The notes: generated by a model not told the origin, from the sequence alone. A DNA stretch of 64,000 nt from an uncultured Geobacter sp. (GCA_903902855.1 CAIUWK010000068.1:3363-67362), one strand, 5' to 3'. Positions 1,199 to 21,992 are shown, numbered from the stretch's first letter. Numbers and translations are program-made.

Positions 1199-1310
1199 GG
1201 CTACGGAGTACCCCTTTAAACTGGTTTACAGCTGTTTATAAACCGGGTATTTCTCAAAACTGATACCGTCATAGCCTCATGAACCTTGCAACGCCTTAGA
1301 ACCCGAAAAA

Positions 1311-1412
1311 CCGGGACCTGGGACCGGGGACCGGTTCAAGCCGTTGCCGGTCCCGAGTCCCCGCTTCTCGTTCTGCTTTTGTCTTTACCGGTCCCCGGTC
1401 CCTGGTCCCCGC
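1311..1412. repeat. inverted pair of 7-nt arrays (GGGACCN x3 ... NGGTCCC x3)
   Basis: ccgggacctgggaccggggaccgg at 1311-1334 and ccggtccccggtccctggtccccgc at 1388-1412, spanning the portal stop. Confidence 0.85.
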
Positions 1413-2799: not shown

Positions 2800-2815
2800 G
2801 GTTCGCTCCGCTCAC

Positions 2816-2836
2816 AGGTTCTAGGTTCTAGGTTTG
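2816..2836. repeat. 7-nt tandem array AGGTTCT x3
   Basis: aggttct aggttct aggtttg. Confidence 0.85.
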
Positions 2837-2847
2837 CACCCTCTCCC

Positions 2848-2873
2848 GTAGGGGCAAGGCGTGCCGTGCCCGG
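2848..2873. repeat. REP-like palindrome, degenerate
   Basis: gtaggggcaaggcgtgccgtgcccgg, between the portal start and the terminase stop. Confidence 0.6.
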
Positions 2874-2890
2874 TCGGGGTGAGGGGTGGT

Positions 2891-4594
2891 TTATCTCCGT
2901 TGAAACAGCCTTCCAAACTTCCCCACCCGCCCCAACAACGACGTCGTCCGCCGGGTATCTTCCCCTTCACTATCCGGCTTGGCGCAGACCGCCACGACCA
3001 TTCCCGACTCCAGCAGACTCTTCAGCATCTCCAACCCATCCGGTCCGTCATCATGTCCCCCCTTACCCTTGGGACGATAATGAATCAACTGCTTGATCAA
3101 CTCCCCCATGCCGTACCGGCGAAACCGAATCCAGCCGTTCTTGATCCAGGGCTGCAGGGTGACTATCCGGAGATCCTTATCCGTGTTCGGCTTCACCGAC
3201 TTCACGTTGATGGTCAGCCCCAGGGCATGCGCTTCCTTCTGGAAACTCTGACTAAAGAACTCCTGAAACTGGATCTCTTCCATGGCCAGCTCGTCAAAGG
3301 GGTCCCGCTGGTGATAGGTCAGGATGTCCGTCATGATCCGGTCGGGGTGGCGCTTCTCGATATCCGCCACATCCACGTAGAGGATGCCGTCCTTCAGCCT
3401 CCCTCCCATGATCGCCGAAGGGTCGGCGTTCCGGCTCTTCTTCCCCAGGGACGGGTCACACGCCCCGCCATGCTTCACCCCGGAGAGATCCACCTCGTCT
3501 TCATCGTAATACTGAATCCACTCTTCCAGAAAGACCGCGTCCTCCGGGTTGATCGGTTCATTCTGCTTTTCGCTCTCGAAGTACGCCGGGCCGTCACTCA
3601 CCCGCATCTTCATCAGGTAGTAATACGGCTCCATCTCCGGCCAGAGCACCTCCGTGTGCCGGAGCATCTCTTCCCGGTGCGCCTCGAAGTAGGTATCGGC
3701 GGCGATCTCCGCCGCTTCCTTCCCCACGGTCAAATCAGCGTAGAGCCGTTCCCACTCTTCCCACCGCTTGAAGGCCTGCGACCACTTCATCACCGCCTTG
3801 AACTTCTGCCCCTTCCACCCCGGTTTTAGCAACAGCCGCGACAGCAGCGAGTCATAATGGAGAATCGTCCCCACCACGATAAAGACCGTATCCGGCTGGC
3901 CGATCTTCATCAAAGCCTTGAAGAACCAGTTCTCCAGCTTCTTCCGCTGTTCCGGACTCTCCACCGCCTCATCGTTCTCCAGGTCATCCACGACAACCAG
4001 ATCCGGTCGGCTACTCCCGTGACGCAACCCCCGCAGCTTCTGTCCCGCTCCGGCCCCCTGGATCTTCACCCCGTTGCGGGTAATGATCTGATCCGCCGTC
4101 CACTTGGGACCCTCGCCGCAGAGCTCCGGAAAATCCTGTTGCAGCCGCTCGTTGGTCTCCAGCTCCAGCTTGATGAACGAAAGAAAGCTCTCCGCCTGAC
4201 TCCGAGTCTCTGAGACGATCAGCGCATACTTCCGCTTCCGAAAGGCCGCCACCCAGAGCGGCAAACCGAAGGTCCCCCAGGTGGACTTGGCATTACCCCG
4301 GGGAGCGGCGTTGGCCTCCTTATCTCCCTGTCCGACCTCCACCGCCGTCCGGATCATCTCCAGATACCGCTTGGAGAAGTACTGATGCAGTCGACTTGAC
4401 GGCTTATTGAAGTAGTGCGGAAAATAGGTTGTGCAAAAGAAGTCCAGGCTTTGGGAAGCGCGCGCCTTGCGCGCCTTCTGCTCACCCCGCCCTGAATCAT
4501 CGGCAAAAGGTTTGGCCGCCGCCTGGATCATCTGGCGCAGCGCCTCAACCTCCTTGTCGAACACCTTCTGTTTTGCCTGACTCACCGCCGCCAT
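2891..4594 (-). CDS. terminase large subunit, Mu gp28-like
   Basis: 567 aa. Walker A-like PRGNAKST and Walker B-like LVVVDDLEND. Directly upstream of the portal gene. Confidence 0.8.
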   Translation of the reverse strand: MAAVSQAKQKVFDKEVEALRQMIQAAAKPFADDSGRGEQKARKARASQSLDFFCTTYFPHYFNKPSSRLHQYFSKRYLEMIRTAVEVGQGDKEANAAPRGNAKSTWGTFGLPLWVAAFRKRKYALIVSETRSQAESFLSFIKLELETNERLQQDFPELCGEGPKWTADQIITRNGVKIQGAGAGQKLRGLRHGSSRPDLVVVDDLENDEAVESPEQRKKLENWFFKALMKIGQPDTVFIVVGTILHYDSLLSRLLLKPGWKGQKFKAVMKWSQAFKRWEEWERLYADLTVGKEAAEIAADTYFEAHREEMLRHTEVLWPEMEPYYYLMKMRVSDGPAYFESEKQNEPINPEDAVFLEEWIQYYDEDEVDLSGVKHGGACDPSLGKKSRNADPSAIMGGRLKDGILYVDVADIEKRHPDRIMTDILTYHQRDPFDELAMEEIQFQEFFSQSFQKEAHALGLTINVKSVKPNTDKDLRIVTLQPWIKNGWIRFRRYGMGELIKQLIHYRPKGKGGHDDGPDGLEMLKSLLESGMVVAVCAKPDSEGEDTRRTTSLLGRVGKFGRLFQRR

Positions 4595-9902: not shown

Positions 9903-10252
9903 CCCTTCATCCCCCGTTCCAACTCATTACGGTATCCGTCCCGCTCGGCCCGTGCCTGAGCCAGGGATGCGGTGAGCACCTCATTATCGGCTCTCATCGT
10001 CTCCGCCCGTTGTGCCGCGATAACGTACAACTCAGCGTGCCGTCCGCACGACACGATGAGGTTTTTGTTATCCCGGGTGAGACGCTCCACCTCGGCGGCG
10101 AGAACATCGTACGAGTTCAGAATTCTCTTCATATCTCCGATAGAACACCATGAATTACTCCCGGAAGGGCTCATCCACCAACTATCCGGTGATTCCGGAT
10201 CAATGCGCACGTACGCTTTTTTTCGTGTTTCCATTGCCTCATCAATCGTCAT
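9899..10252 (-). CDS. phage early protein (117 aa), coiled-coil
   Basis: ATG at 10252 with a GGGAGGGA SD. The longer track form starts inside a REP element. Confidence 0.5.
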   Translation of the reverse strand: MTIDEAMETRKKAYVRIDPESPDSWWMSPSGSNSWCSIGDMKRILNSYDVLAAEVERLTRDNKNLIVSCGRHAELYVIAAQRAETMRADNEVLTASLAQARAERDGYRNELERGMKG

Positions 10253-10287
10253 CTCATCCCTCCCACTCAAAACAGCTCTTGTTGTGT

Positions 10288-10325
10288 CGGTTCGCGTAGG
10301 GGCGGTTCGCGAACCGCCCCTGCAG
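10288..10325. repeat. REP element
   Basis: cggttcgcgtaggggcggttcgcgaaccgcccctgcag. Confidence 0.9.
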
Positions 10326-10405
10326 ATGCCCGTTCTTCCGCTTCCGCCCTGGAGATCTTGCACCGATATTCGAGAATAGCGGCCCGCTCCTCCCAGGTGA
10401 TGCGT

Positions 10406-10657
10406 TCATCGCTGGTCATCATTACCAAGGCGGTATTCCCACGTCGGTTGATCGGCGTCCTTCACCCGGCGACAGGCAATGGCGATGCCGTTATCACGGA
10501 TCTCCTTCACCGTGGCCGACACCGCCTGATTGCGCCACCCCCTGGCCGCCGACTTCTCTGCCAGATCCCATGTCGTGTGCCACTGACCATCGGACAGAAT
10601 CGCCATGATGATCTGCAACCGCGTACTGCTGTAGAGTTTTGCAAAATTCCCCGCCAT
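10406..10657 (-). CDS. small winged-helix-like DNA-binding protein
   Basis: 83 aa. TRLQIIMAILSDGQWHTTWDLAEKS resembles a wHTH. Family not identified. Confidence 0.4.
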   Translation of the reverse strand: MAGNFAKLYSSTRLQIIMAILSDGQWHTTWDLAEKSAARGWRNQAVSATVKEIRDNGIAIACRRVKDADQPTWEYRLGNDDQR

Positions 10658-10700
10658 CTCTCATCTCCTCACACAGTGTTGAAGGTTCAAGAGGACTTCC

Positions 10701-10730
10701 GTAGGGGCGACCGGCCGGTCGCCCCTGCAG
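10701..10730. repeat. REP element, variant core
   Basis: gtaggggcgaccggccggtcgcccctgcag. Confidence 0.9.
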
Positions 10731-10738
10731 AAACCCGA

Positions 10739-10767
10739 TCAACATTCAACAACAATTCAACGATTCA
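10739..10767. repeat. 7-nt array TTCAAC type
   Basis: caacattcaacaacaattcaacgattca. Confidence 0.8.
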
Positions 10768-10768
10768 T

Positions 10769-10796
10769 GTACGGGCGGTTCGCGAACCGCCCCTAC
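10769..10796. repeat. REP element overlapping the HU stop codon
   Basis: gtacgggcggttcgcgaaccgcccctac. Confidence 0.9.
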
Positions 10797-11050
10797 ACCG
10801 CCGCCTTGAACACAAACGCCTGCTTCCCCGGAATGGCAAGGGTTTCACCCGTCTTGGGATTCCTCCACGCCCTGGTCGCCCTGGTGACGACCTTGAACGT
10901 CCCGAACCCCTTCAGCGTCACCGGCTCCGTGTGGGCCACCTCCCGGATCAGATCGAAAGCATGGACCAGAGCCTCATCGATCTCCTTCTTCGTGATCGTC
11001 CCGCTGATCATCTGCAACTGTACTTCCTCAACCAACTGTTTCCTGTTCAT
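10793..11050 (-). CDS. HU/IHF-family DNA-binding protein
   Basis: 85 aa. GFGTFKVVTRATRAWRNPKTGETLAIPGKQAFVFKA is the HU beta-arm signature. Confidence 0.85.
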   Translation of the reverse strand: MNRKQLVEEVQLQMISGTITKKEIDEALVHAFDLIREVAHTEPVTLKGFGTFKVVTRATRAWRNPKTGETLAIPGKQAFVFKAAV

Positions 11051-11062
11051 GCGTTATCTCCT

Positions 11063-11224
11063 TTAGTAGTTATCTTGGACTATTTTAAAATCTGACGATG
11101 TCAGCACCTTCCTGGAGCATACGTCGCAAAACGGACAATACACCGTGACTCTCATACCTTCCGGATGCAAATCAATTAGTACTGTGTCGATATCCACATT
11201 CGCCTGACACACCGGGCATTCCAT
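11063..11224 (-). CDS. 53-aa zinc-ribbon mini-protein (below the ORF-track cutoff)
   Basis: My translation: MECPVCQANVDIDTVLIDLHPEGMRVTVYCPFCDVCSRKVLTSSDFKIVQDNY. Two CxxC pairs. Start overlaps the upstream stop (TAATG). Confidence 0.4.
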   Translation of the reverse strand: MECPVCQANVDIDTVLIDLHPEGMRVTVYCPFCDVCSRKVLTSSDFKIVQDNY

Positions 11225-11415
11225 TAGATAAATACCTCCTCAATAAAGATGACTTTTGCCCAGCAGTTGCAAACAGGACAGACAAGATTTTTTCCCGGCT
11301 CAATGGTCCCTGCGCTTGAAAGATAGATTTTCTGCTTTTTATCCTTGGTAAACTTCATGCCGCAGCAACGCGTGCTGTCGCATTTGGCCGTAACCTTGAA
11401 ATACGGTAGTTTCAT
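11224..11415 (-). CDS. 63-aa Cys-rich small protein
   Basis: Contains C-x4-CC and CPVCNC. Start overlaps the upstream gene by 4 nt (11412-11415). Confidence 0.45.
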   Translation of the reverse strand: MKLPYFKVTAKCDSTRCCGMKFTKDKKQKIYLSSAGTIEPGKNLVCPVCNCWAKVIFIEEVFI

Positions 11416-11654
11416 TCCTTCACCTCGCTATCTTCCCTTGCCGCCAGTGCCTTCCCGATAGAGGTTTCATACCCGTAATCTCCCGGTACCCCGAAAGCCC
11501 GAGGCACCGGAGTCCCCTCCAGAATGCGCGCTAGCCCTTTCAATAATTCAACTGCGTCACCGACGATATCATCCGGGTAAAAGTCAACTGTGCCGATATC
11601 TCGTAACTGCTTAGCAGCTTCCCGGACCGCCATTACCATGAGTCGAGTATTCAT
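11412..11654 (-). CDS. phage early protein (80 aa), unknown
   Basis: ORF-track ORF, tightly packed in the early operon. Confidence 0.4.
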   Translation of the reverse strand: MNTRLMVMAVREAAKQLRDIGTVDFYPDDIVGDAVELLKGLARILEGTPVPRAFGVPGDYGYETSIGKALAAREDSEVKE

Positions 11655-11662
11655 AACTCCCC

Positions 11663-12268
11663 CTACGCCGCGATATTCAGATTCAGCTGCTGATAATCCC
11701 CTTTGGCGTCCCGCCGGTAGAACCGGACGTACGCCTTGGAACTCTCCACCTGGATGCTGTCGCTGATAGCCTGCATCGCCTGCTTCCAGGTCTCGTCCTT
11801 GATATCGATCCGGCGCAACGACAGAATCCGCTTGGTGTTGATCCGCCCCGCCTTGTCCACCTGAAAGGCATCATTGATGAGGGTCCGGATCTCCGACCCG
11901 CTGTCTTCCGACCACCGCCGCAGACAGTCGTCAATCAACGCCTTGGCCGCCTGGAGCCGCTCGTCGAACCTCAGGAAATCATCCATGGAGCGCACCAGCT
12001 TGAACTTGCCGTCATAGCTGGTCAGGGTGACGTTGCCTACCTTTCCCCCCAGATTCGCCCCGTACTTCTCGGCGGAGAGCTCCACAAACGCCTGGATATC
12101 CTCCATCACGTTCTTCTTGAACTCCACCAGCAGCTGGGAAATCGTATCCGCCCGTTTCATCAGCTCGATGACCAGGCCGTTTCTCACCAGATCCACCTCC
12201 TTGATCGACGCCACCGGTACCAGCCGTCCCACCCCATCCGCCATGTAACCTGCCACGATCTGCTCCAT
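11663..12268 (-). CDS. DUF3164-family Mu-like phage protein
   Basis: ATG at 12268 with an AAGGAG SD gives a 201-aa protein, the typical size for DUF3164. The 279-aa track form has an R/H/D-rich extension that does not look coding. Confidence 0.6.
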   Translation of the reverse strand: MEQIVAGYMADGVGRLVPVASIKEVDLVRNGLVIELMKRADTISQLLVEFKKNVMEDIQAFVELSAEKYGANLGGKVGNVTLTSYDGKFKLVRSMDDFLRFDERLQAAKALIDDCLRRWSEDSGSEIRTLINDAFQVDKAGRINTKRILSLRRIDIKDETWKQAMQAISDSIQVESSKAYVRFYRRDAKGDYQQLNLNIAA

Positions 12269-12295
12269 CTGTTGCTCCTTGTCGTTGGTAATATC

Positions 12296-12319
12296 GGGCG
12301 CAGCAAGCCGCGCCCCTAC
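12296..12319. repeat. REP-like element, variant and partial
   Basis: cgggcgcagcaagccgcgcccctac, upstream of the DUF3164 start. Confidence 0.6.
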
Positions 12320-12425
12320 GTTAATACCCAAATACCCCGAACGATTGCCCCCGTCAGGATGATGATGACGGTCCCGATGAAGAACCGCCCCACGATCCGC
12401 TCCGTCCTGGTCATCCTCGGCGGGT

Positions 12426-12557
12426 TCATGCAAACGCCTCCGATACCATGTAGGCCAGCCACCCCAGGGCAAAGCCGATGAACATTGCCATGGAGACCGC
12501 AATCATCATGTACCGGGCCAGATGCTCAACATACTGATCTTCGTCGAAATTCTTCAC
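12426..12557 (-). CDS. 43-aa small membrane protein
   Basis: GTG at 12557 with a GGAGGA SD and a GTGA overlap with the upstream mini-ORF. Hydrophobic MMIAVSMAMFIGFALGWLAYMV. Confidence 0.35.
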   Translation of the reverse strand: MKNFDEDQYVEHLARYMMIAVSMAMFIGFALGWLAYMVSEAFA

Positions 12558-12727
12558 ACCATCCTCCCCGGGTAATTCACCTCGCCTCTCTTCCCCCCCC
12601 GCACCGTGAATGCTCCCATCTGCGCCAGGGCGATGTTCAACCGGCAGTTCGCCTTGTAGGCCATGGCCCGTTTCGTCCGGCCGAAGACCCGCCGCCACTT
12701 CAGATGATCAATAATTGCTTGCAACAT
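12554..12727 (-). CDS. 57-aa basic mini-protein (below the ORF-track cutoff)
   Basis: My translation: MLQAIIDHLKWRRVFGRTKRAMAYKANCRLNIALAQMGAFTVRGGKRGEVNYPGRMV. GAGGAG SD 9 nt upstream. Confidence 0.3.
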   Translation of the reverse strand: MLQAIIDHLKWRRVFGRTKRAMAYKANCRLNIALAQMGAFTVRGGKRGEVNYPGRMV

Positions 12728-13268
12728 GGCTCATACTCCTCTCGGTTAGCAGCGGATTCGGTTCCAGCATCCCTTTCAAAAAAGAATGGGGCACAAAGGG
12801 GGGCGGGTTGGTCTGCGGGCCATTCAGCCACTTGGACTGTTTGCGACCGCACGGGCCGCACATCCGGCTGTGACTGTAATACACATGCTTCCCCGTACAA
12901 CCTTCCACACAGCAATCATTGGTCGGGCGCGGGTTTGTAAGCTGCCTCTTCCCCGTATTCCCGCGGGTTACGGCCACCCCCCGCACACTCTCCAGCGGGA
13001 TATCCCGATACCTGGCAAAGTACGTCTCTGCCTGACGTGCCACCCGCCAGCCGCAGATATCACACTTGATTTCATCCTCCACGGCATACCCGGCCCCGTC
13101 GCTGATCATGGTGACGGTATCCCGCCGCAACGGTCCGGAACACTTGGGGCAAACCGGCTTTTTCAATTGAGAATTGACAGTTGATAATTGACAATTGGGG
13201 GTCAATTGTCCCTTGTCCATTGTCAATTGTGCATTGCCGTTCTTGTCCATTGTCACTTGCTGTGTCAT
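12708..13268 (-). CDS. Cys-rich phage early protein (186 aa), unknown
   Basis: GAGAGGGG SD. Several CxxC pairs (CPKC, CDIC, CGPC). The N-terminal MDKNGNAQLTMDKGQLTPNCQLSTVNSQL is encoded by the AATTGAC repeat array. Confidence 0.45.
   Translation of the reverse strand: MTQQVTMDKNGNAQLTMDKGQLTPNCQLSTVNSQLKKPVCPKCSGPLRRDTVTMISDGAGYAVEDEIKCDICGWRVARQAETYFARYRDIPLESVRGVAVTRGNTGKRQLTNPRPTNDCCVEGCTGKHVYYSHSRMCGPCGRKQSKWLNGPQTNPPPFVPHSFLKGMLEPNPLLTERSMSHVASNY
13164..13256. repeat. inverted 7-nt arrays (AATTGAC / GTCAATT type) inside an ORF
   Basis: caattgagaattgacagttgataattgacaattggggg tcaattgtcccttgtccattgtcaattgtgcattg. Confidence 0.85.
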
Positions 13269-13344
13269 AATCCCCTCTCTTGAATTCTTTCCCGTAGTCC
13301 GGCTCCCCTGGTTGCACCCAGAGGGAGCCGTTTTTTACGGTTTT

Positions 13345-13370
13345 TTCACCATTCACCATTCACCATTCAC
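13345..13370. repeat. 7-nt array TTCACCA x3-4
   Basis: ttcaccattcaccattcaccattcac. Confidence 0.9.
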
Positions 13371-13374
13371 GCCT

Positions 13375-14610
13375 TTAAATTGCCCCTACCACTTCCGCCG
13401 TCACCTTCGCCTCCCCCAATTCGCACGCCAGATTCATCGCCCGGGTAGCGTACAGATTCACCGTCAGCGGATACGCCGTGGAAACACTCCGTCCCCGCTC
13501 CCCGGCCACCGTCAGCCGCCGCTGCAACAACGTCATCGCCTCCTCATCAAAGATTGTTTCCACCTTGCCACCCACCAGCCGGATCTTGTGTTCCAGGTAT
13601 TCCCGACAGTTGGTCATCCCGTCGATCCGCGCCACCTGACAGCGCCGGATCACCTCCCGCATCTCCGGATGGAACCGTTCATCCAGCAGATCCCCCAGCT
13701 CCGTTTGACCGATGAGGATGATGCTGATCAGCTTCCGGTACCCCGTGGTGTCCTCCAGCTCGTAGATCTGTTTCAGCGTCTTGAAGGCCGCCACATTCAG
13801 CCGGTGAGCCTCTTCGATGATCAGGCAGCAGCGCGTCCCCTGTTGACTCCGTTCCAGCAGCAGCCGCTTCACCTGCCGGGCCTTGTGCTCGTGCTTCACC
13901 CGCGGCTTCTCGCTGCTGATATCCATGATGATGGCGTCACACAACGATGCCGACGTGATCTTGTCCTTGTCCAGGATCTCCGGATAGACCACCTGAATAT
14001 CCCCTTCCCGCCGGAGCTGCTCCACCACCAGCTTCCGCATGGTGCTCTTGCCGCTCCCCACTTCCCCCACCACGGACAGAAAGCCGCTGTGCATGGCCGA
14101 ATCCATCATGGCCGCCTCGATATAGCGGTGATCATCATCCTTGTAAATGTCCGACGCCTTCTGCACATCGTTGATAAACGGCGACCGAAACAGCTTAAAA
14201 TGCTTCATTGCCCTGGGGTCCAGCATCTCCACCACCTCCACACTCTCTATTTTTTCCGGATCTCCCGGTTGCATCGCCCGTACCGTAGGCGCCCGATGAT
14301 CATGACACCCCACGGGATGAACCCTGTGCCGTGCTTCATCGGCCTTGTTCCAGATATCGACAATCTTCAGATGACGCTCCGTCAGCCACGCCGTCACCTC
14401 GGCGTTTTCGGCAAGAACACTCTGCAATTTTTCCTTGAAACCGCGAATGCTGGGGGGGATTACCCCCCGGTTAACGCAGAGGTTAATAGTTGCCCGGGAA
14501 ACCCCCATCGCATCGGCGATACTCTTTTGCAGAATGGCGCACTCCAGGATCAGGTGTTTCAGGATGATCGGCGCAATCTCCAGATCATAGACTTTCGTAT
14601 GGTGTGTCAT
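13375..14610 (-). CDS. MuB-like AAA+ transposition helper ATPase (ExeA/TniB-like) with N-terminal HTH
   Basis: Walker A GEVGSGKST and Walker B CCLIIEEAH. N-terminal HTH ADAMGVSRATINLCV. Start overlaps the transposase stop by 4 nt (14607-14610). Confidence 0.8.
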   Translation of the reverse strand: MTHHTKVYDLEIAPIILKHLILECAILQKSIADAMGVSRATINLCVNRGVIPPSIRGFKEKLQSVLAENAEVTAWLTERHLKIVDIWNKADEARHRVHPVGCHDHRAPTVRAMQPGDPEKIESVEVVEMLDPRAMKHFKLFRSPFINDVQKASDIYKDDDHRYIEAAMMDSAMHSGFLSVVGEVGSGKSTMRKLVVEQLRREGDIQVVYPEILDKDKITSASLCDAIIMDISSEKPRVKHEHKARQVKRLLLERSQQGTRCCLIIEEAHRLNVAAFKTLKQIYELEDTTGYRKLISIILIGQTELGDLLDERFHPEMREVIRRCQVARIDGMTNCREYLEHKIRLVGGKVETIFDEEAMTLLQRRLTVAGERGRSVSTAYPLTVNLYATRAMNLACELGEAKVTAEVVGAI

Positions 14611-16358
14611 CGCATCCCCCCCGCCGCCTGTAGGGACGGTTCGCGAATCGCCCTTACATTATCCGCCCCTACGGTCACCGGTTCCGGCAACGCCCTCCCG
14701 GCGGCAATGGCCGCAACCACCTCACCCACCAGCCGATTATCAATAGTCTCTCCGTACTTTGCCCGCAGATCCTTGTTCAAAGCCGGCGTCATGGTCACCC
14801 CATCCGCCAAAAGCGCTTTGAACAGCAACACAATGGGGACTTCCGTGGTCACCACACTGCGGGAAATCTCCGCCACCGTCCCCACCTTGGGAAACGCCAC
14901 CACATTCCCCATCTTATCCTCGAACCCTTCAAAGGCATTGAGCCCGGTGAACGGCGCCACCTTCCCGGTTCGCTGCTGCTTGGAACTGAGCGTAGTCGAA
15001 GCGCCGTAAGCGATATCTTCCAACTTCTTCACCGCCGTCTGCGTCGTCGTATCCTTGTGCGACTTGAACGCCTCGCCGATAACCACCGAATCCGCCCGAA
15101 AGCCCCCCAGTTCCGGCGCCAGCTTGCCGATCTCCTTCACCTCGAACAACCGGTTGTCATACCCCACCACCACGATCCCTTCCTTCCACTTGAACAGGTT
15201 CTTGATCACCTTCACCTTGGTCCCGTGGGGGATATTGGCATGCGCCAGATTGAATTCCTTCCCCTGGAAGCTGATCCGGTGACTGTTCACCGTCCGCTCC
15301 TCCTCCGGCCGGTTCAGCAGGTCGCACAGTTCGGCCCGATCCGGCAGAATCCGGAGCTGCTCCTTATTGATGGTCAGCCAGCAGACCAGCCGGGTCATCT
15401 TGGTCCGGCTATGCTCCCGCGAAGCGTTGAACCAAATGCAAAAGCCCCGCGCCTTCCGGTTCAGATCCTCCATCCCCGTGGCCGGATCGAACCGGAGCCG
15501 CGTCTCGAACCACTTCTCCCAGATGTTATGGGTGACTTCCACGCTCCCCTGTCGCCGGCTGTTCCCCGGATTCCCCGGCAGGATGTTGATCTCCAAGCCA
15601 TCCCAGAACCCCATCCCCATGGCCTTCGCCTTGGCCCGACTCCCGCCGTCCATGAGCATGGTTTTCGGCACTCCCTGGAAGGGGAAGTTTTGTTCCGCTT
15701 TCGCCTCCCAGGCGCAGCAACTGAAGTCGAACAGGTTCTCCGCCGTCTCCCCGGCTGCCAGATAATACTTGACGAAAAAGAAGCCGCTGAAATGGTCGGT
15801 CATGATGTACCGCTGCAACGGCTCCTTGATCTTCTTGAAGTTTTCAATCTTGTTCTTGTAGAACTCATCTTCCCGCATGATCTGCATGCCGCCTTCGTTC
15901 AGGTAATACTGAATGCAGGTGGAGACATCCACCAAGTGGCAGTGATTGGGGTGGAGCGACCGGAGCGAGACATGGGGGGTCGGGTTATTCAGCCGTTTCG
16001 AGTCCATCTCCAACTGCCGCAGCTGCTTCTGCACCGTCTCCACGCTGGCCTCGCCCCGGAGCATGATGTTGTTATCGATGGCGAACTCCATGGCGTTTTC
16101 CACCGGCATAAAAGCCCCCTTATTCTCCCGGCGACTGGCCCAGATCGCCGAAGCGATAAACTCGGCGGTTTCCAGCTTCAGACCGCCATTCCCCTTATCC
16201 GCTCGCTCCTTGCGCTCCAGGGCAAAGCCGTGATCCTTGGCGATGCGGTACAACGTAGAAGAAGAAAGACCTCGTAACCCCTGATACCGGGCGATAATTC
16301 CCGCTCGTTCCCGCGCCGGCGCTTCATTCAATTCCCAGGCTAATTCCCGTTGCCACAT
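14607..16358 (-). CDS. Mu-type DDE transposase (MuA-like)
   Basis: 583 aa. N-terminal HTH (SSSTLYRIAKDHG). Candidate DDE residues in HLVDVS, LMDGGS and GSVEVTHN with DD(35)E-like spacing. Followed by the MuB-like gene. Confidence 0.85.
   Translation of the reverse strand: MWQRELAWELNEAPARERAGIIARYQGLRGLSSSTLYRIAKDHGFALERKERADKGNGGLKLETAEFIASAIWASRRENKGAFMPVENAMEFAIDNNIMLRGEASVETVQKQLRQLEMDSKRLNNPTPHVSLRSLHPNHCHLVDVSTCIQYYLNEGGMQIMREDEFYKNKIENFKKIKEPLQRYIMTDHFSGFFFVKYYLAAGETAENLFDFSCCAWEAKAEQNFPFQGVPKTMLMDGGSRAKAKAMGMGFWDGLEINILPGNPGNSRRQGSVEVTHNIWEKWFETRLRFDPATGMEDLNRKARGFCIWFNASREHSRTKMTRLVCWLTINKEQLRILPDRAELCDLLNRPEEERTVNSHRISFQGKEFNLAHANIPHGTKVKVIKNLFKWKEGIVVVGYDNRLFEVKEIGKLAPELGGFRADSVVIGEAFKSHKDTTTQTAVKKLEDIAYGASTTLSSKQQRTGKVAPFTGLNAFEGFEDKMGNVVAFPKVGTVAEISRSVVTTEVPIVLLFKALLADGVTMTPALNKDLRAKYGETIDNRLVGEVVAAIAAGRALPEPVTVGADNVRAIREPSLQAAGGMR
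14630..14672. repeat. REP element inside the 3' end of the transposase gene
   Basis: gtagggacggttcgcgaatcgcccttac followed by attatccgcccctac. Confidence 0.8.
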
Positions 16359-16381
16359 ACCGCACCCCCTAAAAACAATCC

Positions 16382-16431
16382 ATAAACCTTAAACCTTGAA
16401 CCTTTAGCCTTCAGCCTTCAGCCTTTAACCT
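16382..16431. repeat. 7-nt array TTNANCC x7
   Basis: ataaacc ttaaacc ttgaacc tttagcc ttcagcc ttcagcc tttaacc. Confidence 0.9.
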
Positions 16432-17347
16432 GCATGTGTTCTTTCTCCCACTGCTCAAACTCCTCCATCACCTGGGGATTGAGGCCCGGTCCGCCGATAT
16501 CCATGACGGCGCGATCCTGCCAGGCGTTGGCCGTCATCCGCATGTAATCCAGGGTAGAGATCAGCGCCGCCGCTTCCCGTGGCGTATGGTCCCGGTTGGC
16601 CAGCTCCTCAAAGGCGCTTTCCATCTTGAGCATGTAGCCGTCAAAGCCGACCCGCAGGGTAAAGACCTTGTTCAGATAGCCGTCTTCCTCGCCGGTCATC
16701 CCCTTGACGGCGGCGCGTCCTTCCAGCTTGTCCACCTGCTGCTGGAGCTTCTGCACCTCCTTGTGGGTAGCGGTCTGCACCCGGTCAAAGGCTTTCTTTT
16801 GGGCGACGACTTCCGCCTTCGTTTTGGCCTGCTCCTCGATAATCGTTTCGATGGCCGCCTGCAGATCTTCCCGGTGGTCCGAGTCCAGAGGAATCCGTTC
16901 CCCGCCGATCTCCACCGCCTCGGCGTCGATGATCAGGACGCCGTCATGGGTGAGGAGCCGTAGCTTACGAATATCTTTGTGGCTTAGTGAAAACTGGTGG
17001 CACGTATCCAAAAATTGAGGACCTAACACATCGAGTTGCCGCAGGCGTTCATCAGTCGTATGACGATCTAAACCAATGTAATCACAAAATTTTTCCCAAG
17101 TTCCGATAGTCGGAAGGTCGCGGTATATCTTTGTCTCCTTCAACTTTTGCAACTGCACTAAACTGGCGACAGTCACCACTTTTTCAACGAAAGTGAATGC
17201 CTGAATCCGTCCAGCAAACTCGTGGGCCTCGGCAATGCGTGACTGCTTGCACTTCAGCTCCGCGATCTCCAGATCTGCCTGCTCCCGGGCGATACTGGCG
17301 ATGGAATTGACCGTATCCACCTCTGACTCCATCCCTTTTCTACTCAT
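16418..17347 (-). CDS. phage early protein (309 aa), coiled-coil, unknown
   Basis: ORF-track ORF between the Ner-like gene and the transposase. Its last codons run into a TTNANCC repeat array. Confidence 0.5.
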   Translation of the reverse strand: MSRKGMESEVDTVNSIASIAREQADLEIAELKCKQSRIAEAHEFAGRIQAFTFVEKVVTVASLVQLQKLKETKIYRDLPTIGTWEKFCDYIGLDRHTTDERLRQLDVLGPQFLDTCHQFSLSHKDIRKLRLLTHDGVLIIDAEAVEIGGERIPLDSDHREDLQAAIETIIEEQAKTKAEVVAQKKAFDRVQTATHKEVQKLQQQVDKLEGRAAVKGMTGEEDGYLNKVFTLRVGFDGYMLKMESAFEELANRDHTPREAAALISTLDYMRMTANAWQDRAVMDIGGPGLNPQVMEEFEQWEKEHMQVKG

Positions 17348-17651
17348 GATCCGCTCCGATACTGGTCAAATCGCGGCCAATCCGGTCGCGTTTACCTTCC
17401 AGATTCGCCTTCACCCTGGCCCAAAACAGCGCCACCCCCATGCCGATCTCCCACACATCATTCTCCCGCCGGACGAATCCCGCATCCAACGCCGTCATCA
17501 GCCAGCAAAGCACCGTATTCACCGACTCGCCCATTCCCTGAGCAATCTCCGCCGCCGACATCGGCTGTTTCGCCTGAGACATCAGCTTCAACATCTCATA
17601 CCCCTGCGCCTGCGCCTTAATCCGTCGATAACTATCCCCAGCCATACTCAA
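17340..17651 (-). CDS. winged-helix (IclR/MarR-like HTH) small protein
   Basis: 103 aa. MSAAEIAQGMGESVNTVLCWLMTALDAGFV resembles a wHTH. Confidence 0.45.
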   Translation of the reverse strand: MSMAGDSYRRIKAQAQGYEMLKLMSQAKQPMSAAEIAQGMGESVNTVLCWLMTALDAGFVRRENDVWEIGMGVALFWARVKANLEGKRDRIGRDLTSIGADHE

Positions 17652-17673
17652 AAGCTCCCTTTATCCCTGATTT

Positions 17674-17703
17674 TTCAACCTAGAACCTTGAACCTTGAAC
17701 CTG
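17674..17703. repeat. 7-nt array TTGAACC type
   Basis: ttcaacc tagaacc ttgaacc ttgaacc. Confidence 0.9.
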
Positions 17704-17705
17704 TT

Positions 17706-18140
17706 TCACCTTATTCCAACCTTTCCCCTCAGCCCCGCAATCTCCAGATCCAGCTTCCGCTTCTGCTCTTCCAGCCGCGCCAGCCGGAACAGATCCCGGT
17801 CCTCCGGTCCCACCACCTCGCCGCCCAGGGGGTCAAGCAGATAATGAAACGGCTGCAACGAACCCACCACCCGGCACAGCGCCGGCAGAGCCTCGGCCCG
17901 CAACGCATGCGCCAGATCACTCCCCGTATACTTGTCAAGGGTGTCCTTGCTCAGGTCCCGCCGTTGCAGCCGGCTGATCTCCGCCGCCACCTGATACCGG
18001 TCCTTGCCGCTCTGGCTGATGGAGCGACTCAAACATTGACGAAAGCCCAGGGCGATATCCATGGAACCTTCCGTATCGGTGTCGAACAAAGCCTGTTGAC
18101 TGGACAGCAAACTGTCTTTACTACTGCGGACTTTCGACAT
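17706..18140 (-). CDS. phage early protein (144 aa), unknown
   Basis: ATG at 18140 with an AAGAGG SD. The 210-aa track form would overlap the Ner-like gene. Confidence 0.45.
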   Translation of the reverse strand: MSKVRSSKDSLLSSQQALFDTDTEGSMDIALGFRQCLSRSISQSGKDRYQVAAEISRLQRRDLSKDTLDKYTGSDLAHALRAEALPALCRVVGSLQPFHYLLDPLGGEVVGPEDRDLFRLARLEEQKRKLDLEIAGLRGKVGIR

Positions 18141-18190
18141 TGCGCAAACCTCTTTATCTGTCAAAATCAAAGCAAATTTGATAAGATGCT

Positions 18191-18418
18191 TTAAGCGGCG
18201 TGGCGGTATTCTTCCGGCGTATCGGGAAACAACGCTTCCACCGGAACCTGGCACATCTCGGCGATCGTCCGGCGCACTCGGTACCCCGTCCGCTGGCCGG
18301 AGAGGATGTAATGGATGTAGGTCATACTGATCCCACATGCCTGTGAAATGGCCCGATTGGTGACACCTTTCTTCACCATCTCGGATCGTACATGTCGGAA
18401 CTGTTCCTGTGCGGTCAT
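18191..18418 (-). CDS. Ner-like HTH transcriptional regulator
   Basis: 75 aa. HTH NRAISQACGISMTYIHYIL. Size and position near the divergent repressor as in Mu ner. Confidence 0.6.
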   Translation of the reverse strand: MTAQEQFRHVRSEMVKKGVTNRAISQACGISMTYIHYILSGQRTGYRVRRTIAEMCQVPVEALFPDTPEEYRHAA

Positions 18419-18439
18419 GGCTTCTCCTTTACTTTTGCT

Positions 18440-18733
18440 TCAGTCTTCTTTGTAGATCAACAGGTCAACTTTACCCGGAGCGGGGAAATCTATTGTGTAG
18501 TAGTACAATTTCGTCTCAAGATCAGGGAAGATATCGTAAACACATTGCCAGAGTTCCCATTTAGCAAGGGTCAGATAACGACCTTCGTTGTTTGCCCTGA
18601 TGTTTTGATCACTGAGACGAAGCAGTTCGAGTACCCTGCTGCCCGGTACCGATAACCGTAATACAGGGAGTTCTGGTTCACTTTTGATCTCACACCTATC
18701 TTTCAGGAGGGATCCCAAATGGCTTATTTTCAT
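18440..18733 (-). CDS. first gene of the early operon (97 aa), unknown
   Basis: ATG at 18733 with a perfect AAGGAGA SD. Visibly AT-richer than its neighbours. The 182-aa track form extends into the operator region. Confidence 0.45.
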   Translation of the reverse strand: MKISHLGSLLKDRCEIKSEPELPVLRLSVPGSRVLELLRLSDQNIRANNEGRYLTLAKWELWQCVYDIFPDLETKLYYYTIDFPAPGKVDLLIYKED

Positions 18734-19004
18734 GACTGTCTCCTTTACGGGCAAAGTGTTGTTAGTTTGGTTATCCTGGTACTCGTAGCCTGGAACCGAT
18801 ACGAGAAAGTTATGGCCCTTAGAAAAGCTCGTAAAACAAAGGCGGCCTGTTCCAAGCCGGACAATGAACCACCCATCAAACAGCGGCAGAATGGGCTTCA
18901 TAAACGGTAAATTATCGTTACTCTCTTGAACCGGTGAAAAGTGATAACGTGATAGACGGATATTATCCGAATGGATAAGAACTGTCAACAGGAAAATTAT
19001 ACAA
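18734..19004. promoter_or_regulatory. divergent repressor/early-operon control region with repeated GATAA/TTATC motifs
   Basis: AT-rich 271-bp gap between divergent genes. At least six GATAA/TTATC occurrences in 18910-19015, including GGATATTATCC and GTGATAACGTGATAG. Confidence 0.5.
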
Positions 19005-19388
19005 ATGGATAATTTATTGCTTGGTGATCGAATCCTTTTTGCTATCAGGGCTTATGGACATAGCCAAGACGCCATTGCAGCGTCTTTGGACGTGTCTCCA
19101 GTATCCTTGAATCGGTACATAAAAGGTCACCGAGTACCAGATGCGGATTTTCTTATCCGTTTGGTTGCAATAACTGGTTGTGATGCAGGATGGCTATTAA
19201 CCGGGAAAGAACGAGCTGAAGGAGGGAACGAGAGGATTAACCAGCGGCCCATGGATACCATAACGGAGAAGATTCACCAGCACCTGGAGCAAATGTGTGA
19301 GGATCAAAAGCGGGACGTCCTAAAATACGCTGAAGAGAAGAAACTGCTTTCAGAACTGATGTCGGAGCGGCAAAGAAAGACAGGATGA
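19005..19388 (+). CDS. XRE-family phage repressor (Mu c-like role)
   Basis: 127 aa. HTH SQDAIAASLDVSPVSLNRYIKGH. Divergent from the early lytic operon. Confidence 0.75.
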   Translation: MDNLLLGDRILFAIRAYGHSQDAIAASLDVSPVSLNRYIKGHRVPDADFLIRLVAITGCDAGWLLTGKERAEGGNERINQRPMDTITEKIHQHLEQMCEDQKRDVLKYAEEKKLLSELMSERQRKTG

Positions 19389-19822
19389 ATAAGGGGGATA
19401 TTGTGAGTAGGATTGTTTTTCTGTTATTTGTTATTTGTGTGGGAGGGTGCGGTAATATCGAATGGTTTCCATCTACTTCGCAGGGTAATACCACAACTAC
19501 CACGGTAAGCCACACGGCACTTTGCACTGACGGCACCTATAGTGATTCGGCGACTTGTAGCGGTACCTGCTCATCTCACGGCGGTGTAAGCGTATGGTAT
19601 GTCGCGGACTGCGGCACCGCGACTACTCTGGGGAGCGCGACAGCTACTTGTACTGACGGTTTTCTCAGTTATTCTCAGAATTGTTCAGGAACTTGTTCTT
19701 CACATGGTGGAGTTGCAACTTGGCACACAACCGCGTGCGGTGGAACTGTTGCCAAAGCTCTCGCATTTCCACAATATAGTGGAGCCTCTATTGAACTGAC
19801 GACACTTATTACCTCTCAATAA
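19385..19822 (+). CDS. prophage lipoprotein with two DUF3761-like Cys-rich repeats
   Basis: ATGA overlap with the repressor stop. Signal peptide plus lipobox-like CVGG-C. Repeats CTDGTYSDSATCSGTCSSHGGVSVWY and CTDGFLSYSQNCSGTCSSHGGVATWH. Confidence 0.6.
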   Translation: MNKGDIVSRIVFLLFVICVGGCGNIEWFPSTSQGNTTTTTVSHTALCTDGTYSDSATCSGTCSSHGGVSVWYVADCGTATTLGSATATCTDGFLSYSQNCSGTCSSHGGVATWHTTACGGTVAKALAFPQYSGASIELTTLITSQ

Positions 19823-20045
19823 ATTACCGGGGGAAGAACGAGCTGGAAGTAGCGGGGAGGGGATGACGCCGATGCCAGGGCAAAGCCAGTCCCTGGGCGG
19901 GATGGTGCAGCAGCAGGGAGACGCGATCACGGAACAGATCATCCGTCGCCTGGGACAAATGTCAGAAGATCAACGACGGGACGTGCTAAAATACGCCGAA
20001 GAAAAACAACTCCTCGCTCAACTGATGGCCGAACGGCAACGATGA
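19821..20045 (+). pseudogene. second copy of the repressor C-terminal region (remnant, or a small C-terminal-only protein starting at 19863)
   Basis: 19823-19849 matches 19196-19222, and 19967-20043 matches 19300-19376. Encodes EDQRRDVLKYAEEKQLLAQLMAERQR versus the repressor's EDQKRDVLKYAEEKKLLSELMSERQRK. Confidence 0.55.
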
Positions 20046-20098
20046 CCGGATAATGACGGACCTGGGGAACGAGTCTGTACAAGGGAGGATAGTGATAA

Positions 20099-20460
20099 TG
20101 GATATATTTATCAGGAAAGAACGTACTGGAGCTCAGCGTTACTGCCTGTCATGTCAGTTTTACGGTGAAATGAAAACCTGGATTCGTAACTACAATCTGC
20201 CTCAAGTCGTTATGATTTTTCTGCTATTCAGTTACATCCTCCCCGGTTTACTCTTCATTGCCTACTTCTGGAATAAGTACAAGTGTCCCCAGTGCGGTCA
20301 AGTAGGAAAAAACATAGACAAAAAACCCGGACCTAAACCAATTTACGACTTGGATCAGCCCATTCTAAAGCCACCATCAAAAATATGCCCCTATTGCGCT
20401 GAAACCATCAAGCAACAGGCAATCGTCTGTCGTTATTGCGGGAAAGACCTCCACCACTGA
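20099..20460 (+). CDS. zinc-ribbon membrane protein (120 aa), unknown
   Basis: AGGGAGGA SD before the ATG at 20099. CLSC, one TM helix (VVMIFLLFSYILPGLLFIAYFW), CPQC, then C-terminal CPYC-x12-CRYC. Confidence 0.5.
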
Positions 20461-20587
20461 AGAGGCTGATCCGCCCTTCCCTCCCCTACCCCGTTGAAAA
20501 AGTAATTACGTCAGCAGAAAGCAGATGATCCCGAATGAGCATCGCGGGGTAATGAAGAATTTTGTACTACCATGATATGGAGGGAAT

Positions 20588-21577
20588 ATGAATACTGTTC
20601 AGACTACAGAGTTTATCATCGATAGTGACAATTCCGCCTGGGAGCTGCTGGAAAAGACTCTACGGGAAGGTGCACCAGAAGGTTTGCTCGACATCCGGTT
20701 TGATGGCTGGCCCAAGCTAGTATTTTGCCTAAAAGGCGACAAGTTCGATTCATCCCTGACAATCAAAACGATGAATTACTTCGTCGAATTGCAGCGAAAT
20801 ATCAATTGCTCTTATGCCCAATTGAAGTACAATCGGCCTAACGCGATTGGATTATCCAATTCCGAACGGGATAGCCTAGAGCTCATAGTTAAGGTTGATA
20901 AAGGCTCGTCTATTTTCGAGGTCAACTTTCAACAGGCTTTTGAGGGACTTTTAAAGGGGATCGTTGGCAAAATGACTGGCACGGAGATGTTGTATACTAT
21001 TCTCGGCGTTGGGTTAATCTATGGCACGGTCACGGTGCTAAAGAATTACATCGATCAGCAGGGTAAAAACAAACAGATCGATATGATCCAGGCATTAAGC
21101 GTCCAGGAAACTGAGAAAATGAAGTTAATCGTCGAGGCTGCCAAGCGGCAACCGCAACTGGCACCCATCTACGCCGATGCTGAAGAGACTTACAACGATC
21201 TGCTTCGTAGTACCATTGAAGCTGATTATCTGGAAGTGGGTAAATATCGCCTGCAAAGGGATATTGCCGAACAAATGCTCAGGCAGAAGCGGGAAAAGTC
21301 GGTCGAGGTTCAGTTGAACGGCTATTACCGCATCCTCAGTGTGGACAGCTCTAAAAAAGAAGGCTTCACGGTTGGGCTCAGATCGGCAGATGATCAACGC
21401 GAGTTCCAGGCGGTACTTGATGATAATTTTGTATTCAGAAGGGATGCCAATCTGGAACTTATCAAGAATGCAGAATGGGGTAAGACCGATATTCATTTAC
21501 GCATTAATGGCAAAGAGCTCCGCGGGGCAATTCAACAAGCCACAATCATCGAAGTCATTATTGACAACATCAAGTAA
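20588..21577 (+). CDS. orphan 329-aa protein with one central hydrophobic helix and a coiled-coil
   Basis: GGAGGG SD. MLYTILGVGLIYGTVTVL is the only hydrophobic segment. Visibly AT-richer than the phage core. I recognise no family. Confidence 0.55.
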   Translation: MNTVQTTEFIIDSDNSAWELLEKTLREGAPEGLLDIRFDGWPKLVFCLKGDKFDSSLTIKTMNYFVELQRNINCSYAQLKYNRPNAIGLSNSERDSLELIVKVDKGSSIFEVNFQQAFEGLLKGIVGKMTGTEMLYTILGVGLIYGTVTVLKNYIDQQGKNKQIDMIQALSVQETEKMKLIVEAAKRQPQLAPIYADAEETYNDLLRSTIEADYLEVGKYRLQRDIAEQMLRQKREKSVEVQLNGYYRILSVDSSKKEGFTVGLRSADDQREFQAVLDDNFVFRRDANLELIKNAEWGKTDIHLRINGKELRGAIQQATIIEVIIDNIK

Positions 21578-21584
21578 CACAAAA

Positions 21585-21609
21585 ATGAGGGGCAAACATC
21601 GCCCCTCAT
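21585..21609. terminator. GC hairpin after the cargo genes
   Basis: atgaggggc / gcccctcat 9-bp stem with a 7-nt loop. The A5 run upstream reads as a T-run on the minus strand, so the canonical form is for leftward transcription. Confidence 0.5.
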
Positions 21610-21615
21610 CCAGGT

Positions 21616-21672
21616 TCAAACCAACCGAAATTTTCACGGCGCAAATCCATCAAACCAACCTTGAAAACATTC
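21616..21672. repeat. two direct repeats TCAAACCAACC-(1-2 nt)-GAAA near the prophage end (candidate transposase-binding sites)
   Basis: tcaaaccaaccgaaattttc at 21616-21635 and tcaaaccaaccttgaaaacattc at 21650-21672. Confidence 0.4.
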
Positions 21673-21761
21673 CTTCTCCACCCTCCCGTCAACCATTCGC
21701 CAATCATCGTCGCGGTCATTTATCGCATTTCCCCCTACTTGTTTATCCTCCCCCCCTTTAA

Positions 21762-21992
21762 CAGGACGACGGAACTGTTCTGGGCGGTAACGGTCCTTAC
21801 TACGTCTCCAACAACAAGAACGGCAACGCGGGCTACCCTTGGGCGCTGGACATCCCGCAGGGATGGAAGTGGCCGACGGAGACGATCGATATCGTGACGG
21901 CGTATCCGAACTTTGCGGCATGGGTCCAATCGAGCGGCAAGCTGCAAACCACGTGGTATCTCTCGCCAAACAGTGCGAAGGTTTATCCGTAA
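21762..21992 (+). pseudogene. 3' fragment of an LruC/DUF4842-domain gene, 5'-truncated
   Basis: The frame opens right after a stop at 21759-21761, with no start codon. Encodes QDDGTVLGGNGPYYVSNNKNGNAGYPWALDIPQGWKWPTETIDIVTAYPNFAAWVQSSGKLQTTWYLSPNSAKVYP, which resembles the LruC C-terminal motif as I recall it. Confidence 0.55.

Follow-up and report, generated by a model that had tools for sequence, protein, structure and literature searches.

Genes that are co-transcribed with a prophage repressor, as in cI-rexA-rexB of lambda, are expressed in the lysogen and typically have exclusion or defence functions. Genes behind prophage repressors, such as rexAB, BstA and others, have repeatedly proved to be defence systems. 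Small lipoprotein genes for superinfection exclusion also adjoin repressors, for example Ltp in the Streptococcus phage TP-J34 and Llp in T5. We investigated positions 19005-21577 of a 64,000-nucleotide (nt) stretch of DNA from an uncultured Geobacter sp., and this whole stretch is called the window here. Positions 19005-21577 belong to a Mu-like prophage that ends at 21760. Five open reading frames (ORFs) were found on the plus strand from the repressor to this end, encoding the repressor, a lipoprotein, a remnant of a repressor C-terminus, a Zn-ribbon membrane protein and a protein of 329 amino acids (aa). The 329-aa protein belonged to a large family with a strong preference for two cargo positions in phages. 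Its closest described counterparts by position are lambda Rex and BstA, an abortive-infection protein that prophages encode behind the repressor (Owen et al. 2021, PMC8585504).

Family and conservation of the 329-aa protein

The gene was assigned to a family by a profile match.

20588-21577, plus strand: gene of the 329-aa protein, member of PHROG 6191 (phrog_6191, E 1.4e-77)

The match was full-length, with residues 6-323 aligned to profile positions 5-331 of 338. An earlier note on this DNA had stated that no family could be named for the protein. A family can be given, and the statement stood only in the sense that PHROG 6191 is itself annotated as function unknown. A filter-free search of 1.84 billion representatives gave 763 relatives at E <= 0.001, of which 137 reached E <= 1e-30; each relative represents a cluster at 50% identity. 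Of the 763, nearly all were 320-350 aa long and matched end to end, and the longer members showed no informative extra domain or fusion. The closest database protein outside this prophage was at most 66% identical to the 329-aa protein. No match was obtained in Pfam (E <= 0.1), NCBIfam or PADLOC (E <= 0.1). A profile search of all Protein Data Bank (PDB) sequences with the family gave matches at chance level only, and a search of genome contigs with a closer alignment of the family found no relative.

Conservation was analysed in 136 members. The columns conserved at 90% or more were mostly structural (A17, W41, P42, G50, Q69, L89, G106, S107, M129, G245 and A318). The conserved polar positions were E14, Q69, E93, R94, S107, S108, E174, R177, R207, R235 and K299, and no recognised catalytic motif was found among them. 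This absence points to a non-enzymatic mechanism. Aromatic and basic residues were conserved in the C-terminal OB domain. Among 5,426 complete E. coli genomes, 93 + 18 carried the family. These results showed that, as judged from sequence, the 329-aa family is a large, phage-borne family of stand-alone proteins. The gene in the window is therefore no orphan; it belongs to a large phage family without a name, which other authors had flagged by computation.

Genomic context and comparison with known systems

The 89 other loci with a family member were grouped into 32 clusters at 90% identity. In nine of the 32 clusters, the family gene was located at most 300 nt downstream of a CI-type repressor and was co-oriented with it. 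Eight of these repressors were assigned by Pfam to Peptidase_S24, with or without HTH_3, and one had an XRE/CI helix-turn-helix (HTH). In the E. coli phage phi458, the family gene followed CI after 25 nt. The order in E. coli prophages was cro / cI - X - N - ral, where X is the family gene. Compared with the lambda reference, this position is the rexA-rexB slot, from cI to N/PL and co-oriented with cI. A divergent E. coli protein adjacent to cI was also a full-length member of the family (hhalign probability 99.45%). The family gene was directly behind the repressor in a Pseudomonas lambdoid prophage and in the Moraxella phage Mcat17. In 5-6 of the 32 clusters, an XRE repressor was separated from the family member by one or two other genes; in a Mu-like remnant of Geobacter anodireducens, these were two lipoprotein genes. 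This arrangement was observed in Geobacter and in other Mu-like elements. In all, the family gene belonged to a repressor operon in 14-15 of the 32 clusters. A second position was found in 10 of the 32 clusters, where the gene was antisense between the antiterminator Q and the holin/endolysin genes. The family thus showed a strong preference for repressor operons and for the Q-lysis cargo position. The earlier note had raised a joint occurrence of the cargo genes beside repressors. This was borne out for the 329-aa gene, which was repeatedly repressor-linked in unrelated phages, and was not borne out for the trio. Beside the family in the 89 other loci, there was no recurrent partner gene and no homologue of the Zn-ribbon protein or of the DUF3761 lipoprotein.

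The 329-aa gene was compared with lambda rexA-rexB. It is similarly located downstream of a repressor, is dispensable and is probably expressed in the lysogen. In contrast to the two proteins of Rex, the family consists of one protein. No RexB-like four-helix membrane protein was present, and the 329-aa protein has only a single, marginally hydrophobic helix. It also lacked a whole-protein structural match in the PDB. Homology to RexA (279 aa) and RexB (144 aa) was rejected, since hhalign of the 136-sequence profile gave probabilities of 0.1% and 0.2%, respectively. A two-component Rex-like system with a cytoplasmic sensor and a polytopic membrane protein was also rejected, because no conserved partner was found in the 32 clusters.

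The likeness to BstA (PMC8585504) is that a single protein of about 300 aa is encoded directly behind prophage repressors in diverse Gram-negatives. Unlike BstA, the 329-aa protein has no KilA-N/Bro-type N-terminal domain and no Pfam match (E <= 0.1), and its predicted architecture is an alpha/beta domain, a hydrophobic helix and an OB fold. Identity with BstA was rejected on the lack of a PADLOC match (E <= 0.1), in a release whose content of a BstA model was unverified. Two further candidates were rejected: Tab (PMC10884400), whose gene is close to those of the terminase and whose target is the tape-measure protein, and GiPD474 of Gifsy-1 (PMC12724215), which has an ATPase domain.

Two E. 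coli members of the family, WP_001272876.1 and WP_000357056.1, were listed in Table S10 of DefensePredictor (PMC13092281) as 'Predicted novel defense gene', with mean log-odds of 6.86 and 6.55. Both were among the 1,041 'uncharacterized clusters' of that study, without HHblits or Foldseek matches to known defence proteins. WP_001272876.1 occupies the rexAB position and WP_000357056.1 the Q-lysis position. In the literature, no functional study was found for the accession numbers of the family or for phi458, and the DefensePredictor table was the sole trace.

Other genes were observed at some of these loci. In an E. coli ST540 prophage (L095; 609-902, 2275-3327), the Q-to-lysis region with the family member also held a DNA methyltransferase gene, and the iss serum-survival lipoprotein gene was located past the lysis genes. 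The methyltransferase and iss genes indicated that several cargo genes are stacked there too. In two XRE-repressor operons ending in the 329-aa family (L085 4517-5317 and L089 5016-5858), a phrog_6521 gene intervened. The phrog_6521 product is a membrane protein in the PHROGs category 'moron, auxiliary metabolic gene and host takeover'.

Predicted structure

An AlphaFold2 model was made from the 136-sequence alignment, with a predicted local distance difference test (pLDDT) of 95.4 and a predicted template modelling score (pTM) of 0.83. It consisted of an alpha/beta domain (1-127), a hydrophobic helix (131-161), a helical hairpin (172-211) and a C-terminal barrel (239-324). An OB fold was taken as a barrel of five strands in which a helix separates strands 3 and 4. 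The barrel had the order of four strands, a helix and two strands, which is OB-like with the helix before the last two strands. The earlier note had described a single central hydrophobic helix and a coiled-coil. The helix was found, as a marginal one, and the supposed coiled-coil was the helical hairpin in the model.

When the full model was searched against PDB and BFVD with Foldseek, no entry matched the protein as a whole. The partial matches were OB folds, namely the anticodon-binding domain of lysyl-tRNA synthetase (LysRS), the single-stranded DNA-binding protein (SSB) Rim1, LEF-3, DNA ligase, the DnaE OB domain and ribosomal uS12. A separate model of residues 1-127 (pLDDT 88.9) gave nothing with Foldseek against PDB, where the best probability was 0.21. 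The structural check that the earlier note had suggested thus yielded a confident fold with partial OB matches and no match to the protein as a whole. These models showed a confidently predicted, unmatched fold with an OB-like C-terminal domain.

The position of the hydrophobic helix was conserved across the 136 members, and the helix was rich in Gly, Ala, Ser and Thr. The best 19-mer on the Kyte-Doolittle scale was 1.54 for the protein in the window; the family mean was 1.71, and 62% of the members reached at least 1.6. The helix is probably packed in the fold, and conditional insertion or oligomerisation might occur.

The OB fold and its conserved basic and aromatic residues would also suit an accessory regulator of the phage's own cycle, in which DNA binding modulates the lysis-lysogeny switch, induction or replication/transposition. 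RexA was reported to influence the lambda switch. The family adjoins CI-type repressors in many phages, where it is probably co-transcribed with them, and the window keeps a C-terminal fragment of a repressor that might interact with the repressor. However, close sibling prophages lacked the 329-aa gene, and in a third of the clusters it was distant from the immunity region, on the opposite strand between Q and the lysis genes. Only 3 of 50,697 isolated phage genomes carried the family, and there was no homology to RexA or RexB. We consider such a regulator unlikely.

Possible function

The positions in other phages, the fold and the computational prediction of defence made it possible, though somewhat short of probable, that the 329-aa protein is an anti-phage factor of some kind. 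It would bring about phage exclusion or abortive infection as a single protein, with the C-terminal OB fold as the part that recognises a protein or nucleic acid made by the infecting phage. The strongly conserved, Gly-rich and marginally hydrophobic helix would then oligomerise or insert in the membrane, and the infection would be stopped. The lipoprotein and the Zn-ribbon protein may each work on their own in the envelope, for instance by hindering adsorption or the entry of DNA. The proposed sensor and membrane-acting step resemble Rex. In this specific form, with a sensor and a membrane step, the mechanism is doubtful. In a wider proposal, PHROG 6191 would be a new abortive-infection system, widespread and with the roles of RexA and RexB united in a single protein. 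Its OB domain would sense a replication or recombination intermediate or a phage protein and release a latent helix, which would oligomerise in the inner membrane and collapse the potential. The Mu-like repressor-to-end slot, the cI-N slot and the Q-S slot would then be interchangeable. We regard this proposal as improbable in its entirety.

Several points weigh against an anti-phage role. The OB matches had E values of 0.03-0.2, probabilities of 0.9-1.0 and target TM-scores of 0.4-0.7, which are weak, and OB folds bind proteins and sugars too. The Hessa sum of the helix was +0.8 kcal/mol in the window protein, with a family median of +0.7 and 27% of the members below 0, so that the span is marginal. 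More Lys and Arg residues flanked the helix C-terminally, a poor fit to an N-in topology. Because of the high pTM, the helix is probably packed inside the fold, and the membrane step is speculative. In the window, the promoter scan gave no promoter-like site for the plus-strand genes past the repressor region, and the hairpin located 3' of the 329-aa gene was oriented for the opposite strand. No defence model of PADLOC-DB 2.0 matched the lipoprotein, the remnant, the Zn-ribbon protein or the 329-aa protein. As to the context, the IMG/VR loci were top matches only and viral by construction, and 7 of the 32 clusters were unclassified. The defence role and the expression ascribed to the protein are predictions. 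The two E. coli proteins were absent from the tables of tested systems (PMC13092281), and the prediction by DefensePredictor is not independent of the positional argument, since it uses the gene neighbourhood.

The family is large, with the 763 clusters, about 2% of complete E. coli genomes and at least four distant host groups, and the confidently predicted fold has no solved relative. The question is directly testable because the E. coli alleles WP_001272876.1 and WP_000357056.1 exist. If they protect, a single-gene defence family and a protein architecture would be added, both of them new. If they do not, adjacency to a repressor would by itself predict defence less well than is often assumed.

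The gene string behind the repressor

The features of the string, apart from the 329-aa gene, were as follows.

18962-19012, no strand: two operator-like palindromes, ATTATCCGAATGGATAA and ATTATACAAATGGATAA, 34 base pairs (bp) apart, from a repeat search; putative function
19005-19388, plus strand: XRE/CI-type repressor, 127 aa, GC 0.466 (HTH_3 E 1e-8 and Phage_CI_repr E 3e-5 in Pfam; phrog_2328 E 6e-12)
19403-19822, plus strand: lipoprotein gene with two DUF3761 repeats; 139 aa with GTG 19403 as start, 145 aa with ATG 19385
19823-20045, plus strand: remnant of the C-terminus of an ancestral repressor, preceded by a 27-nt linker repeat (ORF 19863-20045, 60 aa)
20098-20460, plus strand: Zn-ribbon membrane protein, 120 aa (Zn_ribbon_3 E 4.6e-7; zf-LITAF-like E 0.078)
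20461-20587, plus strand: 127-nt spacer that accompanies the 329-aa gene, absent in the related prophages L092/L093; no consensus plus-strand promoter and no Rfam match

The palindromes were of the TTATCC-N4-GGATAA type. Promoter-like sites were located on both strands at 18960-19013, divergent and overlapped by the palindromes. The second palindrome covers the repressor ATG at 19005, which may mean that the repressor mRNA is leaderless or has a very short leader. The PHROG matched by the repressor, phrog_2328, is annotated as transcriptional repressor. An Rfam scan of 18300-21900 gave no match. The spacer before the 329-aa gene may hold the gene's own promoter and ribosome-binding site.

The GC content was 0.471 across 19005-21577, whereas the phage core had 0.569 and the host 0.586. 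The claim that the string is AT-richer than the core was correct for the string as a whole, but the remnant was core-like with a GC content of 0.568. The newcomer genes had 0.43-0.48, the lipoprotein gene 0.482, and the core and the remnant 0.57. The string was oriented opposite to the lytic genes as claimed, given that the transposase A, transposase B and Ner-like genes were on the minus strand. Transcription of these genes most likely accompanies that of the repressor or directly follows it, and they would then be expressed in the lysogen.

The earlier note had placed the lipoprotein start in an ATGA overlap with the repressor stop. The overlap was present at 19385-19388. However, a strong Shine-Dalgarno sequence, AAGGGGGA, preceded GTG 19403, and gene callers elsewhere gave 139 aa for the lipoprotein, which makes GTG 19403 the likelier start over ATG 19385. 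A start at 19403 leaves a gap of 14 nt and no overlap between the repressor and the lipoprotein genes. The lipoprotein had a signal peptide with a VGGC lipobox and two repeats of PF12587 (DUF3761; E 3.6e-17, 63 bits against a cut-off of 29). No close DUF3761 relatives of the lipoprotein were found in IMG/VR. In sibling Mu-like prophages, other secreted proteins or lipoproteins occupied its slot. Its likeness to Ltp and Llp is positional only, in that the gene adjoins the immunity repressor; as a DUF3761 repeat protein, it differs from those families, to which it has no similarity.

The remnant was recognised as a repressor C-terminus, as had been claimed, by 77% nucleotide identity over 91 nt to the repressor at 19283-19373 (blastn), and by the 27-nt repressor-linker repeat present at 19196 and 19823.

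ATG 20098 is the most likely start of the Zn-ribbon protein, which was identical to a database protein (P0161). Its layout was Cys 16/19, a hydrophobic stretch at 37-55 (segment of 19-23 residues), Cys 63/66 and a C-terminal Zn_ribbon_3 of the form CxxC-x10-CxxC. The CxxC-helix-CxxC arrangement described earlier was confirmed, but the spacing of the last pairs is x10 and not x12. The hydrophobic segment had a Hessa sum of -1.6 kcal/mol. Only four full-length homologues were found among 5.8 billion proteins. The protein shares with LITAF/SIMPLE-like zinc ribbons (PF10601) a CxxC, a hydrophobic segment of about 22 residues and a second CxxC. It differs from them in falling far below the family cut-off (E 0.078, 13.6 bits against 23.8) and in having the extra C-terminal Zn_ribbon_3.

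Two of the three cargo genes thus encode envelope proteins, the DUF3761 lipoprotein and the Zn-ribbon membrane protein. This is in line with lysogenic-conversion cargo, which would benefit the host outside phage defence (envelope, stress or environment), with the 329-aa protein as a structural or binding protein of the envelope or nucleoid. The Q-lysis region that holds the family in E. coli also holds conversion genes of the iss/bor type, and the 329-aa family conserves no catalytic residues. No known defence model matched the genes of the slot, here or in siblings. The PADLOC check proposed in the earlier note accordingly failed to find a defence system, since the repressor HTH alone matched HTH-containing models of PADLOC-DB 2.0, and weakly. 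However, the 329-aa family was almost confined to prophage cargo slots, and it recurred at the rexAB position across distant hosts. A host-specific benefit would hardly account for the exact rexAB position in hosts as different as E. coli, Pseudomonas, Moraxella and Geobacter. DefensePredictor also predicted defence (PMC13092281). Lysogenic conversion therefore seems a rather unlikely role for the 329-aa gene, and we keep the anti-phage reading as the tentative one.

On the early-operon side, a 97-aa ORF (182 aa from the farthest start) was observed on the minus strand at 18440-18733, between the Ner-like gene and the repressor. Its GC content was 0.446, and it had no Pfam, PHROG, NCBIfam or PADLOC match. 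The AT-rich block 18445-18841 was absent in L092/L093, which had a 72-aa ORF there instead. The block looks like a second variable cargo position.

Sibling prophages and the history of the slot

The earlier note had joined the lipoprotein, the Zn-ribbon protein and the 329-aa protein into one exclusion or abortive-infection module. The three genes were indeed adjacent, co-oriented and AT-rich with gaps of 14-127 nt, and the Zn-ribbon and 329-aa genes occurred together in at least three contigs, all of this same prophage. However, each gene was present or absent independently in the siblings. One sibling contig had an intact 132-aa repressor followed by identical Zn-ribbon and 329-aa genes, and it had no lipoprotein gene. 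In L092/L093 and two long contigs, the repressor was followed by a secreted 121-aa protein or a 63-aa ORF, then by a Zn-ribbon gene (60% identity) and the prophage end; the 329-aa gene was absent from all of these. The pairing of the Zn-ribbon and 329-aa genes was limited to one near-identical prophage, which indicates shared descent and not conserved linkage. Neither the Zn-ribbon protein nor DUF3761 had a homologue in any of the 89 other loci of the 329-aa family. The gene distribution largely refuted the module, and a joint function of the three genes is very unlikely.

The same comparison gave the structure of the slot. L092/L093 matched the window at 18842-18953 (operator region), at 19840-20042 (remnant) and in the terminal 180 bp, and there was no nucleotide match to 18954-19839 or 20043-21580. 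The remnant was 91.6% identical to the 3' end of the repressor gene of L092/L093. The Zn-ribbon gene was the last gene before the end in sibling Mu-like prophages, with or without the 329-aa gene. In 22 further Mu-like relatives (transposase identity 28-63%), one or two different genes were located behind the repressor, some of them for secreted proteins or lipoproteins. These cargo genes had no Pfam or PADLOC match, and none was like the Zn-ribbon or 329-aa protein. The stretch from the repressor to the left end was thus a variable cargo slot holding three independently distributed genes. A slot of co-oriented, compositionally foreign genes had been proposed in the earlier note, and the mapping of the prophage end and the GC content confirmed it.

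The order of events was read from the alignments and the GC content. The present 127-aa repressor and the lipoprotein are newcomers, and the remnant is the C-terminus of the original repressor of the lineage. In the simplest history, a foreign segment with repressor and lipoprotein entered the old repressor gene by recombination; the immunity was thereby swapped, and the remnant stayed behind. The Zn-ribbon gene is the lineage-typical last gene, and the 329-aa gene with its 127-nt leader is a separate cassette between the Zn-ribbon gene and the terminal hairpin. The string is best read as a stack of independently acquired cargo genes that are probably expressed in the lysogen. The window is a clean example of a Mu-like repressor-to-end slot that gains and exchanges cassettes, including an immunity swap with a leftover repressor fragment.

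Prophage end and flanking DNA

The minus strand of the window carried the early half of the Mu-like transposable prophage, according to PHROG matches. The features of the prophage core, the end and the flank were as follows.

260-4594, minus strand: head-morphogenesis (MuF-like), portal and large terminase genes (PHROG matches)
13375-14610, minus strand: transposition protein B (phrog_296, E 4e-47)
14607-16358, minus strand: transposase A (phrog_310, E 2e-57)
18191-18418, minus strand: Ner-like regulator (PHROG match)
21581-21760, no strand: conserved terminal 180 bp of the prophage, last base 21760 (four insertions), with the direct repeat TCAAACCAACC at 21616 and 21650
21583-21611, minus strand: 13-bp GC-rich, terminator-like hairpin with its T-run on the minus strand (region 21581-21760 kept in L092/L093, which have no 329-aa gene)
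21762-21989, plus strand: 3' part of a host gene with DUF4842 (PF16130 at E 2.4e-18, covering positions 156-208 of the 208 in the profile)

The Mu-like nature was supported by transposases A and B, by a divergent control region of Ner and the repressor, and by identical ends at different chromosomal sites. The metagenomic contig L090 was 99.9% identical to the window over 10098-21760 and diverged beyond, and contig L091 showed the same match with divergence at the same point. The final 180 bp were common to the related prophages L092/L093 at 96% identity. All four independent insertions terminated in ...CCCTTTA, and each then entered different flanking DNA. The prophage end is at 21760, because four insertions shared one end sequence and had different flanks. 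The string is located between the repressor and this end, as the earlier note had placed it.

The hairpin at 21583-21611 is, from its conservation, part of the prophage end and not of the 329-aa cassette. With its T-run on the minus strand, it would stop host-side transcription from entering the prophage. Two exact copies of TCAAACCAACC were observed 34 bp apart, 3' of the hairpin and inside the conserved terminal 180 bp, and these repeats may be transposase-binding sites.

The flank held only the last 53 profile positions of DUF4842, which indicated that the host gene was cut by the insertion of the prophage. The remainder of this gene must be beyond the window, past the other end of the prophage.

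The window and the otherwise identical L090 copy had 13 differences only, all in one GC-rich palindrome (10298-10335 in the window and 201-238 in L090). The palindrome was GGGGCGGTTCGCGAACCGCCCC in the window and GGGGCACGGCGCGCCGTGCCCC in L090. Both versions were perfectly self-complementary, which indicated compensatory changes in a hairpin. In the host flank of L092 (6728-9244, minus strand), a very large protein rich in CxxCH motifs, of the multihaem cytochrome type, was observed. Together with the Geobacter anodireducens match, this protein suggested Geobacter/Desulfuromonas-type hosts for the phage lineage.

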